32,290 bases of DNA from a virus. This document shows, piece by piece, positions 12,269 to 17,840 of the stretch. The translations under genes were made by a program, and so were the position numbers. The DNA lies in the IMG/VR virus record IMGVR_UViG_3300028800_001532. One strand, 5' to 3'. Each line of letters starts with the position of its first letter. The first letter of the stretch is position 1. The notes beneath the pieces were generated by a model. That model ran no database searches. It worked only from the letters and a program-made list of their open reading frames with translations, and was not told the DNA's origin.

Positions 12269-12510
12269 ACGACGTTGCAGCAGCGTGTCCGCACGAGCAT
12301 CTCCAGTTCGAGGTGTGCGATCAGACCGGGGGCGTGGGCTGCAACGACTGCAACACCCTCCTAGCCTACTGCTGGGCTGACAACCACATTCCCGAGTCGT
12401 TGTGGAACCGCATGTGCGCCCAGGACCCGGAGGCTCGTCCCTGCGAGCAGAGTCGCGATGACGTGTGCGCCCTCTGCGATGAGCCCATCGAGACGAAGTC
12501 GGAGAGTTGA
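12265..12510 (+). CDS. small Cys-rich protein (81 aa)
   Basis: The GTG start overlaps the previous stop (GTGA). The sequence carries CPHEH ... CNDCN ... CALCD pairs. Confidence 0.45.
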   Translation: MNDVAAACPHEHLQFEVCDQTGGVGCNDCNTLLAYCWADNHIPESLWNRMCAQDPEARPCEQSRDDVCALCDEPIETKSES

Positions 12511-12524
12511 CCAAGGAGAGAACG

Positions 12525-12794
12525 ATGCTGAGCGACAATGCAATGTGTGTGCTGACGGCCATCAAGCTGGGGTGCTCCATCTCGTCAATCCCGAGCACCA
12601 TCTACGACGAGCTAGCCGGTGCCGGTCTGATTTGCGCCTCTGTTCCGTGTCTGCCCGACGTGTGCCTGACCGATGCAGGTGCGGAGCTGGTGTCTGACGT
12701 GGAGTACGCATCGGGCGAGACGGGTGTCGTGCCGTTCGGGCACTTCCGAGACGTGTCCAGGCCGTGTCCTGTCAGCGACCGCCAGTCTCTATAG
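12525..12794 (+). CDS. small hypothetical protein (89 aa)
   Basis: The Shine-Dalgarno site AAGGAGAG lies 5 nt upstream of ATG 12525. Confidence 0.45.
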   Translation: MLSDNAMCVLTAIKLGCSISSIPSTIYDELAGAGLICASVPCLPDVCLTDAGAELVSDVEYASGETGVVPFGHFRDVSRPCPVSDRQSL

Positions 12795-12820
12795 GCTCGA
12801 CGTCCACGAAAGAGACGACG

Positions 12821-13099
12821 ATGCTGACCGACAAACAGAAAGCGATGATCCTGGCGAGCGACAGATGGCCCGTGACGATGGTCACGGAGCGTGAGCGTGA
12901 CTCGATCTCCTACGAGGTCGTGTGCGGCAACGTCACGGCCGGAGACCATGGCGACGCGCGGTCCGTCTGGTGCGAGACGGTACACTTCGGTGCGACGGAC
13001 GCCACCGTTGCAGGTGGGTCCGACTTCGTTCAGGCGGCACGGCATCAGCAGCAGATCGCTGACGAAGTGCTGGCGTTCCTTCACGAAACCGAGGGCTGA
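12821..13099 (+). CDS. small hypothetical protein (92 aa)
   Basis: The ATG is internal to track ORF 12764..13099. The Shine-Dalgarno-like AAAGAGA lies upstream. Confidence 0.45.
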   Translation: MLTDKQKAMILASDRWPVTMVTERERDSISYEVVCGNVTAGDHGDARSVWCETVHFGATDATVAGGSDFVQAARHQQQIADEVLAFLHETEG

Positions 13100-13133
13100 C
13101 ACCCTGCGCGCTTGCCCTCGAAAGGAATGCGAC

Positions 13134-13367
13134 ATGCAACCGATCGTGTTCAAAGAATGTACCGTGGAGACGACGGCTCGCGACGGGGAACGCCGGACGA
13201 GGGTCACTCTTCGACTGTCGAGAGGCTGGGTTGGAGACACGTATCCGGACGGTGAGGTGCGCGAACCCTCATTGTTGACGTTGTCGATCGACAACAAGGT
13301 CGCAGCCGGCCTGAGATTGGGCCAGGTCTTCACGCTGACTTTGGCGGAAGAGATCCAGGCCAAGTAG
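13134..13367 (+). CDS. small hypothetical protein (77 aa)
   Basis: The ATG is internal to track ORF 12891..13367. A TGCGCGC motif lies about 35 nt upstream. Confidence 0.45.
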   Translation: MQPIVFKECTVETTARDGERRTRVTLRLSRGWVGDTYPDGEVREPSLLTLSIDNKVAAGLRLGQVFTLTLAEEIQAK

Positions 13368-13402
13368 TGATCCAACCCTGCGCGCGGGCCGCAGTTTCCG
13401 CC

Positions 13403-13467
13403 ATGCGCTGTACGTACTGAACACCCGTCTTAGAATCGTACTCGACGGGGTTGCGCTGTACGTACGG
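13403..13467. repeat. 13-nt direct repeat GCGCTGTACGTAC present twice (about 48 nt apart) in a 150-nt intergenic region
   Basis: The copies lie at about 13405-13417 and 13453-13465. Each contains the palindromic GTACGTAC. The repeat lies upstream of a module that contains an RHH protein. Confidence 0.5.
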
Positions 13468-13518
13468 AGCATGTAGATTGATTGGTGTCAGCACGGAGCT
13501 GGCGCGGAGGATGAGACG

Positions 13519-13731
13519 ATGACCGCCGAGAAGCTTGCTAAGAGCCTGTTTGCCGACGACCTGGGCCGCGCCGATGACGTCCCCGTCGAGCGCGATGGGG
13601 AGCGGGCCTACGACGGCTGGGTCCGCGCCGCTGGTGAGGCTGGCGACAGGGAGACGGCGACGGCCCTGGCCGGCGTCGATCGCTCCGAGTTCGCCGCCGC
13701 GTGGGACGCGCTCGTCGAGGCGCAGTCGTGA
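13519..13731 (+). CDS. small acidic hypothetical protein (70 aa)
   Basis: Track ORF. The Shine-Dalgarno site GGAGGA lies upstream. Confidence 0.45.
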   Translation: MTAEKLAKSLFADDLGRADDVPVERDGERAYDGWVRAAGEAGDRETATALAGVDRSEFAAAWDALVEAQS

Positions 13732-13904
13732 GCCGCTCCGGCACCCCCACGACCCCGAACGGCAAACGCACGCGCCCGATGGTCACGCTCACGCTCTCCC
13801 CCGAGGCACTTGCCCGACTCGACGCCATCGCGGCCGAGCGCGGGCAGACGCGATCCGGTGCCGTCGAGCAGCTCGTGCGCAACGCGCGATTGGGCGAGCG
13901 GTAG
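13728..13904 (+). CDS. ribbon-helix-helix (CopG/Arc-like) DNA-binding protein
   Basis: MVTLTLSPEALARLDAIAAERGQTRSGAVEQLVRNA fits the RHH pattern. A GTG start at 13728 overlaps the previous stop. ATG 13779 is an alternative start. Confidence 0.5.
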   Translation: MSRSGTPTTPNGKRTRPMVTLTLSPEALARLDAIAAERGQTRSGAVEQLVRNARLGER

Positions 13905-13935
13905 ACGTACACACCTGCGCGCGAGGGACAAGAAG

Positions 13936-16285: not shown

Positions 16286-16347
16286 TCACGGACACTCGCG
16301 TGGGCGCCTGCGCGCTTTTGGGACCTAGACGAAGGAAGGGTGAAGCG

Positions 16348-16542
16348 ATGGGCGTTCCGTTCGGTGAGATGGTGACACGCATCACGGTGAAGACGGGCAT
16401 GTGGGTTGACCACAAGGAGGACGGCACGACGACTCTCGTGATCGCAATGGCCAACGGCCGCACGGTGACGGACACGCTCTCCAGCGACGATCGTCACTCG
16501 CTGCTGAACGCGCTGACGTGGAAACCTGGTGATGCGAGGTAG
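16348..16542 (+). CDS. small hypothetical protein (64 aa)
   Basis: The Shine-Dalgarno site GAAGGAAGG lies upstream. A TGCGCGC motif lies about 35 nt upstream. Confidence 0.4.
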   Translation: MGVPFGEMVTRITVKTGMWVDHKEDGTTTLVIAMANGRTVTDTLSSDDRHSLLNALTWKPGDAR

Positions 16543-16610
16543 GTTCGGACGTTCGTGTGGGCCAGGTAGCCTGCGCGCATCTTGAGACGGGACAACGGAA
16601 AGGAGCGGCG

Positions 16611-16781
16611 ATGGTCCAGTTTCACCGGCACCCTGACTGCAGATGCGACGTCGCCCCAAAGGGCTGCATCGTGCATCCACCCGGCCACCGCGGCACCGAA
16701 TTGGCCACGCTCAGCGCGCCCCGCGCACAACTGGAGGCGCTGGCCTGCGCCGGCCCGCGCGGCGTTCCCCCGCATGGGTGA
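16611..16781 (+). CDS. small hypothetical protein (56 aa)
   Basis: The Shine-Dalgarno site AAAGGAG lies upstream. GC3 is high. The stop overlaps the next start (ATGGGTGA). Confidence 0.4.
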   Translation: MVQFHRHPDCRCDVAPKGCIVHPPGHRGTELATLSAPRAQLEALACAGPRGVPPHG

Positions 16782-16923
16782 GTGCAGTTCGACGGAGGCG
16801 CATGCGTGTCCGCGGTGCGGCATGTGCCGCGAGGAGTGGGCCCACGGGCGTAAGTGCGAGTTCTGGCGTCTTCTGCGAGAAGTGATGAACGTGGCGCCAC
16901 CAGCTTCGGAAAAGGGCGCGTGA
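16774..16923 (+). CDS. small Cys-rich protein (49 aa)
   Basis: The sequence carries CPRCGMC ... C. GC3 is high. The stop lies inside copy 3 of the 28-nt element. Confidence 0.35.
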   Translation: MGECSSTEAHACPRCGMCREEWAHGRKCEFWRLLREVMNVAPPASEKGA

Positions 16924-16936
16924 CGTGCGCGCGATC
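16915..16936. repeat. copy 3 (22-nt core, ggcgcgtgacgtgcgcgcgatc) of the intergenic element
   Basis: This copy matches the cores of the copies at 4412-4439 and 4721-4749. Confidence 0.65.
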
Positions 16937-16964
16937 TGCACCGAGTGAGAGGAGTCAAGGACCG

Positions 16965-17243
16965 ATGAGCGGACGAGTGCTGACGAAGACCGAGGTAGAC
17001 GACATCCGGCGTGCCATGAGTGGACAGACGCTCGTCGCGTACACACCGCCACCAGAGGTCGCGAGGGACTTGCTGGCCACCCTCGACGCGCTGGTGAGCG
17101 CATGCGTGGACGCCCAGGTGGAGATGGGGCCGTACTGCCTCGTGTGCGGCGAGGGCGTCGAGGCTGACGACGATCCGTGCGACGTGCCGTGCTCGGGGCT
17201 GACGCTGCGACGACTGTTGCACGCGCTCGGGAGCGGCGCGTGA
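16965..17243 (+). CDS. small hypothetical protein (92 aa)
   Basis: The Shine-Dalgarno site GAGAGGAG lies upstream. The C-terminus carries CLVCG...C. Confidence 0.45.
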   Translation: MSGRVLTKTEVDDIRRAMSGQTLVAYTPPPEVARDLLATLDALVSACVDAQVEMGPYCLVCGEGVEADDDPCDVPCSGLTLRRLLHALGSGA

Positions 17244-17272
17244 GTGCGCGCGGAGAGGAGCGGATAGCGTGA

Positions 17273-17476
17273 ATGCGGCACCCCGAGGAGCGAAGCGTGT
17301 TGAGTCGTGCGGCGACGTCGGCGCAGTGGCGCCTGGCGCGGTGGCTGGGGCTGACCGACACGGAATGCCACTGCGCGGTGTGTCGTCACCAGATCGTCGA
17401 GTGGCTCGCGCGGGAGATGGTGCGCGTCGGCGGCGAGCGGGCAAGATTGAGTAGGCGTGGGTGCGCGAGACAGTGA
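17273..17476 (+). CDS. small hypothetical protein (67 aa)
   Basis: Track ORF. The sequence carries CHCAVC. Confidence 0.35.
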   Translation: MRHPEERSVLSRAATSAQWRLARWLGLTDTECHCAVCRHQIVEWLAREMVRVGGERARLSRRGCARQ

Positions 17477-17537
17477 AAAACGGTACGTGAAAGTGCGCGG
17501 TCTGACAAAACGTCGGCGCGATCAAGAGGAGGACAAC

Positions 17538-17840
17538 GTGGCTGTGAACTGGTCTGAGATGACAACCGAGGAAGTGTTCGATGCGCTCGGTCATGCGCCA
17601 CTGGTCGCCGGTCCGTGGGAGTGTGTGCGTGACGGCAAGGTCGTGCGCTGGGCGCCCATCTGGTACCGAAGCGGCTTCTGCCTCGACGTCGGGACTGTCG
17701 AGCGCATGCCCGAGCACCTCGGAAGTCGGGTTGTGGTCTGCATCGACGGCGGCGTAGCTATCGACGTCGAGTCCGTAGCCGCTGGTCGTAAGCTGGTAGA
17801 CGAGAAGCTTCGTGAAGCCGGGTGGAGACTAGTGGACTGA
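17538..17840 (+). CDS. small hypothetical protein (100 aa)
   Basis: The Shine-Dalgarno site AGAGGAGG lies 6 nt upstream of GTG 17538. Confidence 0.45.
   Translation: MAVNWSEMTTEEVFDALGHAPLVAGPWECVRDGKVVRWAPIWYRSGFCLDVGTVERMPEHLGSRVVVCIDGGVAIDVESVAAGRKLVDEKLREAGWRLVD

Follow-up and report, generated by a model that had tools for sequence, protein, structure and literature searches.

What does a seven-base word, TGCGCGC, do ahead of a row of very small phage genes? The question is raised by a 32,290-nucleotide sequence from IMG/VR virus record IMGVR_UViG_3300028800_001532 (here called the window), in which an earlier note had described, between roughly 12.5 and 17.5 kb, about 25 tiny plus-strand genes, each preceded by a palindromic (cc)TGCGCGC element that was proposed to be a second, class-specific promoter, operator or attenuator. 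The placement of TGCGCGC in the window is real and non-random, and the element is common to several unrelated soil phages. Very probably it marks, on the sense strand, where portable cassettes begin (their 5' boundary) and serves as their expression signal; the genes of these cassettes are preceded by Shine-Dalgarno (SD) sites.

TGCGCGC occurs 29 times on the two strands of the window, as against 13.7 ± 4.7 in dinucleotide shuffles, none of which (0/100) reached 29. Fourteen of the 20 plus-strand copies lie in the 2,719 intergenic bases that make up 8.4% of the window (binomial p = 2.1e-11), and the other six are in coding sequence, where sense-strand copies are found at about chance frequency. 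The earlier note had proposed a comparison of frequencies between and within genes, and the motif was not refuted by it, with a density of approximately 5.1 per kb of intergenic sequence against 0.2 per kb of coding sequence (25-fold). Genes were called with a codon-usage model, in agreement with the calls on record for the ENA contig introduced below. An unbiased k-mer scan of the 60 nt upstream of all genes returned just two outstanding words, GGTGTA and TGCGCGC, the latter being the top 7-mer (14/29, p = 1.6e-9).

The window is itself a JGI contig, and its sequence is contained in a 218,019-bp ENA contig (ERZ27245399 k141_1829800), with three mismatches over the 10.9 kb compared; it belongs to a phage genome that measures 218 kb or more. 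The readable part of this phage comprises 51.8 kb of the parent contig, and statements made here about the phage refer to that part. Only one further copy was found in the extra 19.5 kb of parent genome, and the element is therefore confined to two plus-strand clusters, whose features are as follows.

3998–4027, plus strand: sigma-70-like site TTGAGA-18-GAGAAT with TG, in the 3' end of a deacetylase gene, upstream of cluster A
4211–5255, plus strand: cluster A, three small SD genes (58, 88 and 107 aa) and a possible 34-aa open reading frame (ORF), with four motif copies
4211–4217, plus strand: motif as TGCGCGCA (full 8-bp palindrome), 16 nt before ATG 4234, in a 183-nt gap
4429–4435, plus strand: motif in the extended repeat CTAACCGGCGCGTGACG-TGCGCGC-GATC, 34 nt before ATG 4470
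4739–4745, plus strand: motif in the same 28-nt extended repeat as the 4429 copy, 2 nt after stop 4736, 34 nt before ATG 4780
5107–5113, plus strand: motif, 3 nt after stop 5103, 19 nt before the possible 34-aa ORF 5133–5237
13100–17840, all plus strand: cluster B, 11 motif-headed translation units with 14 confident genes and 2–3 doubtful ORFs
13105–13111, plus strand: motif, first of the main array, 5 nt after stop 13099, 22 nt before ATG 13134
13379–13385, plus strand: motif, 11 nt after stop 13367, 133 nt before ATG 13519, in a gap that also holds the repeats of a ribbon-helix-helix (RHH) operon
13916–13922, plus strand: motif, 13 nt before ATG 13936, with the SD GAGGGA directly after it
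14259–14265, plus strand: motif, 8 nt after stop 14250, 68 nt before a 221-aa gene
15162–15168, plus strand: motif, 28 nt before ATG 15197, inside the doubtful ORF 14996–15181
15758–15785, plus strand: two motif copies (15758 and 15779) in a single gap, the second 30 nt before ATG 15816
16309–16315, plus strand: motif, 32 nt before ATG 16348
16572–16578, plus strand: motif as TGCGCGCA, 32 nt before ATG 16611
16926–16932, plus strand: motif of the GGCGCGTGACG-TGCGCGC-GATC subfamily, 32 nt before ATG 16965
17245–17251, plus strand: motif, 1 nt after stop 17243, 21 nt before ATG 17273
17494–17500, plus strand: TGCGCGG, a variant with one mismatch, 37 nt before GTG 17538 in the gap that closes the array

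The intergenic positions previously given from about 13090 to 17250 thus correspond to exact copies within 1–15 nt, whereas the site at about 17495 is the one-mismatch variant at 17494. Copies placed near 4211, 4427, 4741 and 5108 are present at 4211, 4429, 4739 and 5107, and the copy at 15162 had been overlooked. Fewer genes were found than the estimated 25 or so: the calls on record give 16 between 12265 and 17840, to which 2–3 doubtful small ORFs may be added (approximately 16–19). Nor does every gene have an element of its own. By the calls on record, an exact copy is present in 14 of the 15 gaps of at least 29 nt in both clusters and the fifteenth holds TGCGCGG, while none is present in the two short gaps (14 and 26 nt) that open the array or before genes that overlap the preceding gene. 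Copies therefore go with translation units, one for each of the 11, and not with single genes.

In most gaps the motif lies 1–29 nt past the stop codon and 13–34 nt ahead of the start codon, and two long gaps place it 68–133 nt from the start; the full range (1–29 nt and 13–133 nt) is wider than the 5–25 nt and 15–45 nt first reported. The leading cc, described as usual, is present in 5 of 15 copies (C at -2 in 10/15), and the palindrome said to occur in several copies is complete in only three (4211, 15758 and 16572), and so is a minority feature. All non-palindromic copies outside ORFs are on the gene-sense strand. Minus-strand copies at 24849 and 24911 were attributed to chance and are probably inside a likely 42-aa plus-strand ORF (24801–24929, read by eye). 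The copies at 15162 and 16309 form a subfamily, TGCGCGCTTTnnGGACCTAGACGrAGGAA, and the copy at 14259 makes an inverted repeat with GGCGCGCA (14239–14246).

The region had been described as one of ORFans, and the genes behind the motif are indeed mostly ORFans: when the array proteins were compared with Pfam, none but the RHH protein scored above the curated cut-off. These genes are not paralogues of one another, and the motif is therefore not a product of gene duplication. One interval, 16611–16923, has weak coding potential and a frame switch near 16720–16780, and the calls on record annotate only 16611–16781; the explanation may be a frameshift, a gene in decay or a pair of very small ORFs.

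The other outstanding upstream word, (C)GGTGTA, stands ahead of many genes on both strands, at a distance of 10 ± 1 nt from the ATG. Its instances include the following.

Window 1103, 6779, 8915, 9171, 9217, 21508, 21709, 25158 and 31724; L007 and L010 (relatives described below) throughout: GGTGTA

Fifty-three instances were collected from three genomes of the same huge-phage family, without a conserved -35-like partner, and the word often overlaps the end of the upstream gene's coding sequence. The word has the look of a signal used throughout the family, either for leaderless mRNAs or tied to the start codon. The gene classes headed by GGTGTA and by TGCGCGC are mutually exclusive, which upholds the proposal of a second, class-specific cis element. 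An SD sequence precedes 12 of 13 TGCGCGC-class genes and 4 of 16 GGTGTA-class genes (p = 5e-4), an association somewhat inflated by our own gene caller, which rewards SD sites at start choice; the independent calls on record agree with this caller for most starts.

The two words also differ in their distribution among relatives of the window phage. Relatives of a 721-aa window protein number in the hundreds and occur on contigs as long as 659 kb, and an 862-aa protein (22123–24711) contains the shoulder and repeat domains of the major vault protein (Pfam E = 6e-28), its matches among GenBank phages being solely 'uncultured phage' records of 462–735 kb (38% identity). These matches on very large phage contigs indicate that the window belongs to a huge phage whose family is uncultured; phages of this kind have been described (PMC7162821). 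No DNA-level match to the window was found among GenBank phages. Three members of the family (L007, L008 and L010), fetched via the 721-aa protein and 67–74% identical there, have neither the TGCGCGC motif nor the array genes, and CGGTGTA is an upstream word in two of the three. GGTGTA is therefore taken as a whole-family signal and TGCGCGC as specific to a variable module, one that was probably acquired.

The same layout was found in four further contigs: L012 (JGI, 103 kb; copies at 9517, 9861, 12139, 12456, 12730 and 12974), L232 (ENA, 15 kb; copies at 2617, 4816, 5227, 5542, 6042 and 6463), L234 (IMG/VR, 113 kb), in which 11 successive motif-headed genes lie within 4 kb under a longer consensus, CAACAACCGCGCGAAACAC-TGCGCGC-GAA, and L235 (IMG/VR, 81 kb; 12 copies). 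A fifth contig, L135, shows it weakly (2 copies). Since these carriers were found via homologues of array genes, the spread of the element beyond them is not measured by this set. No hallmarks of the huge-phage family were found in any of the five, and at least four of the carrier contigs lie outside the family of the window phage. Integrase (tyrosine recombinase) genes adjoin or lie within the arrays of L012, L232 and L235; L235 also encodes a family A DNA polymerase, and L234 a Mu-F-like head protein. Larger genes are motif-headed as well in L234 and L235, namely those for a pentapeptide-repeat protein and an RNA ligase.

Control loci were provided by viral-contig scans with 14–15-nt motif-plus-SD strings, which yielded only chance matches in coding sequence and were reused as negatives; a scan of viral contigs with the 22-nt extended repeat gave no match. 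More than 200 such loci, mostly of high G+C content, contain at most one stop-motif-SD-start layout each, and 10 layouts are present in the window and 4 in L012. These controls bear on whether the motif simply reflects spacers of high G+C and CpG content. The genome has 63% G+C and its GCGCG-rich patches cluster, as such an origin would predict, but no shuffle reached the observed count, the intergenic density is 25-fold higher, each gap holds one copy, the motif is missing from gaps elsewhere in this genome, and the layout is not repeated in the controls. A composition artefact is effectively refuted by these shuffle, density, gap and control tests and is left with next to no probability.

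Several observations were made on the carriers themselves. One L232 copy appears to fall within the integrase gene only because the gene call is frameshifted: this call (3537–4850) continues into an Arg-rich nonsense tail, and the true C-terminus is in another frame and ends at 4581, so that the anomaly is a frameshift or assembly error. In L012, four near-identical sigma-70-type promoters (cTTGACAAsCTwGGCA...CCATACT-like) stand ahead of successive genes between 5655 and 8240, showing that canonical promoters are used in this phage beside the TGCGCGC element. No candidate for a protein common to all carriers was found in the carrier sequence examined. The N-terminal domain of the 221-aa array protein is present in other contigs (L011, L013/L134/L136, L137 and L138) in which the layout is absent, and the protein is thus neither a reliable marker nor an obvious binder. 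One homologue-bearing contig was binned with a Gemmatimonadaceae metagenome-assembled genome (MAG), which hints weakly at a host. A tblastn search with the 221-aa protein gave no match, and scans of metagenomes and genomes with an alignment of the protein yielded nothing beyond that MAG contig; its AlphaFold model is too poor for use (predicted local distance difference test, pLDDT, 61; predicted template modelling score, pTM, 0.26).

Pooling of copies (n = 51) gave the consensus W-A-n-(A/C)-C-TGCGCGC-(G/T)-A, an element of approximately 13–15 nt around the invariant core TGCGCGC. The conserved block spans 7–11 bp (about 15 bits; about 11 informative positions), with no further conservation upstream of the consensus in the 51 aligned copies. 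A start codon with an SD sequence follows 12–35 nt downstream in 79% (median 24), and the spacing from motif to SD varies from 0 to approximately 20 nt. On the other side, a stop triplet ends no more than 12 nt upstream in 82% of copies, compared with 21% at random positions, and ends 0–3 nt before the motif T in 57%. Position -4 is A in 30 of the 51 copies, compared with 23% for other flank T's (p = 3.5e-8), and +8 is a purine in 40; in L234 the A-rich pentamer AACAC is kept even where no stop codon is near. Within single genomes, some copies are surrounded by identical flanks of 28–32 nt (window 4429/4739; L234 118/2621). The L234 pair (86–124 and 2589–2627) shares the 32-nt flank CGGTTCGATTGGGAGAGTAACGCGCGACACAC before the motif of two different genes, and three other L234 copies share CAACAACCGCGCGAAACAC, internal repeats that are long enough for homologous recombination.

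Position alone does not assign the element to the upstream or the downstream gene, since in the long gaps it lies beside the stop codon in three cases and beside the start codon in three. Comparisons between genomes were more informative. Orthologues at window 16348–16542 and L232 4853–4966 (53% identical) have the motif 32 and 30 nt upstream, respectively; their leaders, from motif to start, are only about half conserved, and on the upstream side of the motif the two sequences are unrelated. L012 and L232 can be aligned exactly from CGATAR-TGCGCGCG, through a leader of approximately 140 nt and into the next gene, and their upstream genes differ. Homology that starts at the motif in two comparisons indicates that the element moves together with the gene behind it and delimits a cassette on its 5' side. 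A cassette would accordingly consist of the element, a leader of 12–35 nt with a strong SD sequence, one or two translationally coupled ORFs and a stop codon, the last usually placed 0–3 nt ahead of the following element. The shared heading sequence would serve as a point for cassette exchange, for which the homology breakpoints and the identical 28–32-nt flanks within single genomes argue.

A comparable arrangement is known from the promoter-early/stem-loop (PeSL) cassettes of T4-type phages, in which a sigma-70 early promoter is combined with a terminator stem-loop (PMC2839356, PMC4122927). In the PeSL system, too, a short conserved sequence precedes each small, mostly ORFan gene in hyperplastic regions (PMC2839356, PMC4122927), and it sits at exchange points between otherwise unrelated phage sequences, as was found here for TGCGCGC. 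The present element differs in being a single G+C-rich block of 7–15 nt without a -35 sequence, consistent stem-loop or U-tract, and in being common to phages of different families, where PeSL elements are shared among close relatives.

Exchange could in principle be all that the motif is for. If it were only a microhomology or recognition site for the insertion or swapping of cassettes, with no role in expression, homology between genomes would be expected to begin at it, as it does in both comparisons. The identical flanks, the head-to-tail abutment (stop 0–3 nt from the next motif in 57%) and the tyrosine recombinase genes inside the L012, L232 and L235 arrays are also in keeping with this, as are the highly variable arrays, phages that share the 67–74% identical 721-aa protein having no array genes. 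However, a pure scar is not expected to be invariant, constrained in its distance from the start codon (79% at 12–35 nt) and strictly on the sense strand; 7 bp is short for any known recombinase site, the gaps of 29–68 nt leave no room for attC-like structures, and no recombinase gene is near the window arrays. A role confined to recombination is accordingly considered very improbable, a little more so than the following variant, which we regard as a long shot. The 7-nt core could be the recognition or crossover site of a dedicated recombinase, or of a sequence-specific RNA- or DNA-processing enzyme, that makes SD-bearing, mostly ORFan genes portable. Such machinery might, at similarly poor odds, exchange genes between unrelated soil phages, both huge and mid-sized, probably temperate ones, as a phage counterpart of integron cassettes with a minimal site.

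The likeness to integrons lies in head-to-tail arrays of ORFans in one orientation that look promoterless, in a repeated element with a 7-bp conserved core, and in a tyrosine recombinase beside the array in three carriers. attC sites differ from the present element in that they close the cassette at its 3' end and are imperfect palindromes of some 55 bp or more, compared with 7–15 conserved nt here. An attC identity is not supported: the gaps measure 29–68 nt including leader and SD sequence, an inverted GCGCG partner is present in 9 of 21 copies, and the element goes with the downstream gene.

A role in cassette exchange is compatible with any of three ways in which the element might act on expression. 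The earlier note was right that a real cis element is present, but nothing singles out a promoter over an operator, an RNA element or a recombination junction. Our tentative preference, held at well below even odds, is for a compact, promoter-like start signal that lacks a -35 element. For this reading we infer a role in transcription initiation, a location of the start and a kind of reader. The A/T-containing pentamer and the invariant T would form a weak -10-like hexamer (A at -11, T at -7), often overlapping the upstream stop codon; GCGCGC would be a fixed GC-rich discriminator between this hexamer and the start; and transcription would begin at a purine 7–8 nt past the motif T, giving each cassette its own short leader with an SD sequence. 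The reader would be a polymerase or factor other than the host's main sigma factor acting alone. One copy per unit, leaders of 12–35 nt, the enrichment of A at the would-be -11 and the purine at the would-be start all speak for such a signal.

Much can also be set against a start signal of this kind. Its core is 100% G+C, unlike the regions melted by known RNA polymerases, and the 51 aligned copies contain no conserved second block at -35 or anywhere from -30 to -12. The putative -11 is A in only 59% and G in 13 of 51, -12 is T in only 14 of 51, and the upstream A/T signal is in part the neighbouring stop codon, in variable register. L012 has textbook TTGACA-N17-CATACT promoters before other genes, so that the host's main sigma factor, if the host is the same, would not need the element; several integrase-bearing carriers look temperate, which makes a polymerase of their own unlikely. 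The motif comes as close as 12–13 nt to start codons, and in three long gaps it lies beside the upstream stop codon, 68–140 nt from the next start. The inflation of the SD association noted above counts in the same direction, and ORFs that end just before the motif fit an untranslated RNA element at least as well.

Known signals were considered and are not supported. A standard sigma-70 promoter has against it the lack of a -35 hexamer in the 51 copies and a consensus scan of 12200–18000 that returned no site. A sigma-54 promoter (read as GGCGCG-N-TGC) requires GG and GC doublets spaced by exactly 10 nt (-24/-12); the element has GG at the required position in only 8 of 51 copies, and the implied start would also remove the SD sequence in copies 12–13 nt from the start codon. 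An intrinsic terminator is not supported since no plus-strand terminator-like site is present in the array, though the genome has a canonical one at 24731–24780. The attenuator suggested in the earlier note lacks support on the same ground and on that of its hairpins, which are no better than those of copies in coding sequence. Upstream GCGCG is able to pair with the motif in a hairpin enclosing the stop codon in about 40% of copies (9/21), but best-stem scores are equal for intergenic (5.05) and coding copies (5.09), the 5' arm is degenerate and the 3' arm invariant; a stop-in-loop hairpin was therefore not accepted as a general feature. Rfam 15 gave no match at gathering threshold over the whole window, and no description of the motif strings was found in the searchable literature.

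The absence of plus-strand terminator-like sites between units is consistent with read-through, which brings in a second way of acting. UGCGCGC in the untranslated spacers of long polycistronic mRNAs could be read by an endoribonuclease or RNA-binding protein, cleavage or binding serving to separate, stabilise or translationally control each cistron. Analogues are the RNase III sites between the early genes of T7, and RegB and RegA in T4. Strict strand specificity is accounted for, as is the ending of the upstream ORF 0–12 nt before the element in 82% of copies, GGTGTA in comparison overlapping coding sequence freely. A single short block without a partner is typical of RNA recognition sites, the sigma-70-like site precedes the first cluster A copy by about 180 nt (the start that it implies is approximately 177 nt upstream of copy 4211), and some 40% of copies can form the short hairpin around the stop codon. 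Against this, the spacing of 0 to about 20 nt to the SD sequence makes simple occlusion of the ribosome site unlikely, the hairpin potential equals that of coding copies with a degenerate 5' and an invariant 3' arm, there is no Rfam match, and no candidate protein is common to the carriers in the sequence examined. We know of no ribonuclease or RNA-binding protein with such specificity. An RNA element is judged only slightly less probable than the favoured start signal. The T7 early operon itself, polycistronic and with one RNase III hairpin of about 60 nt per spacer, resembles the array in having one signal per spacer, there among small host-takeover genes, but differs in that the gaps here total 29–68 nt and have no conserved structure.

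A third way would be a DNA site at which a phage or host protein binds in each gap and blocks or gates RNA polymerase in an orientation-dependent manner, for instance to silence cassettes in lysogeny. The model for it is the stoperator of cluster A mycobacteriophages, a 13-bp site with more than 20 copies genome-wide, including operators at promoters, that is bound by a monomeric repressor with a helix-turn-helix (HTH) domain and a stoperator domain (PMC9283540). TGCGCGC is likewise an asymmetric multi-copy site found in short intergenic spaces and oriented with transcription, as the published stoperators are (PMC9283540); its GCGCGC core is palindromic like many protein-binding sites, and integrases stand beside the arrays in L012, L232 and L235. 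The differences lie in the core of 7 bp within a conserved block of 7–11 bp (about 15 bits), compared with 13 bp, and in copies that fall in two clusters and not genome-wide. Moreover, the six in-gene sense copies, at about chance frequency, would block transcription too; no operator-type copy is seen on the clear L012 promoters, bar one reversed copy in a spacer; and the readable part of the window phage holds neither integrase nor repressor, no homologous repressor candidate having been found. A stoperator-like function is therefore judged unlikely.

The RHH protein (13728–13904) had been put forward as a possible binder of the motif. It is encoded by a two-gene operon (13519–13904), which has the following feature upstream.

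13404–13471, plus strand: two direct copies of TGCGCTGTACGTAC, 48 nt apart, each with the palindrome GTACGTAC

Because the operon has these repeats of its own, the RHH protein is unlikely to bind TGCGCGC, and no RHH homologue was found in the sequence of L012, L135 and L232 (L234 and L235 were not searched for one). The repeats are separate from the TGCGCGC system and are likely to be the RHH operator, with an autoregulatory role. Their second copy overlaps a possible promoter, TTGCGC-N17-TAGATT, that was read by eye and lies below the scan threshold.

In its scale, the favoured start signal recalls the mimivirus early motif AAAATTGA and the short late motifs of phiKZ-like phages, which are A+T-rich and are read by a virus-encoded polymerase. 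As in these viruses, an octamer-scale motif is found at a set distance upstream of one gene class and the other class uses another motif; TGCGCGC differs in consisting of G+C only and in occurring also in mid-sized, integrase-bearing phages. If the element is an expression signal, it would represent a second, transferable mode of expression in a huge phage whose other genes appear to use GGTGTA without an SD sequence, and its sequence could be used as a simple tag in the search for cassettes of the accessory, host-takeover or anti-defence type among uncultured soil phages. The position of the element at the edges of homology blocks across phage families suggests a testable route for the movement of ORFans between lineages, and at 15 nt it is short enough for reporter and soil-metatranscriptome tests.

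The remainder of the window contains a dense and unusual set of auxiliary genes, to which a weak SAICAR-synthetase-like match may be added, and a textbook terminator.

1187–4050, 9265–12268, 28480–29427 and 31051–31713: DnaJ-Ser/Thr kinase fusion, histone-deacetylase-like protein, Ham1, HisG, SpoU methylase, EF-Ts and ADP-ribosylglycohydrolase
24731–24780: intrinsic terminator, a 16-bp stem followed by CTTTTCTTTT, directly after the vault-like gene

A tRNA search was negative. The sole single-base differences from k141_1829800 in the 10.9 kb compared are at 559, 577 and 1601. Short contigs from sister assemblies encode identical proteins, which, together with the near-identical ENA contig, indicates that the window phage recurs across related samples. 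A GGTGTA motif lies at 24781, immediately behind the terminator.

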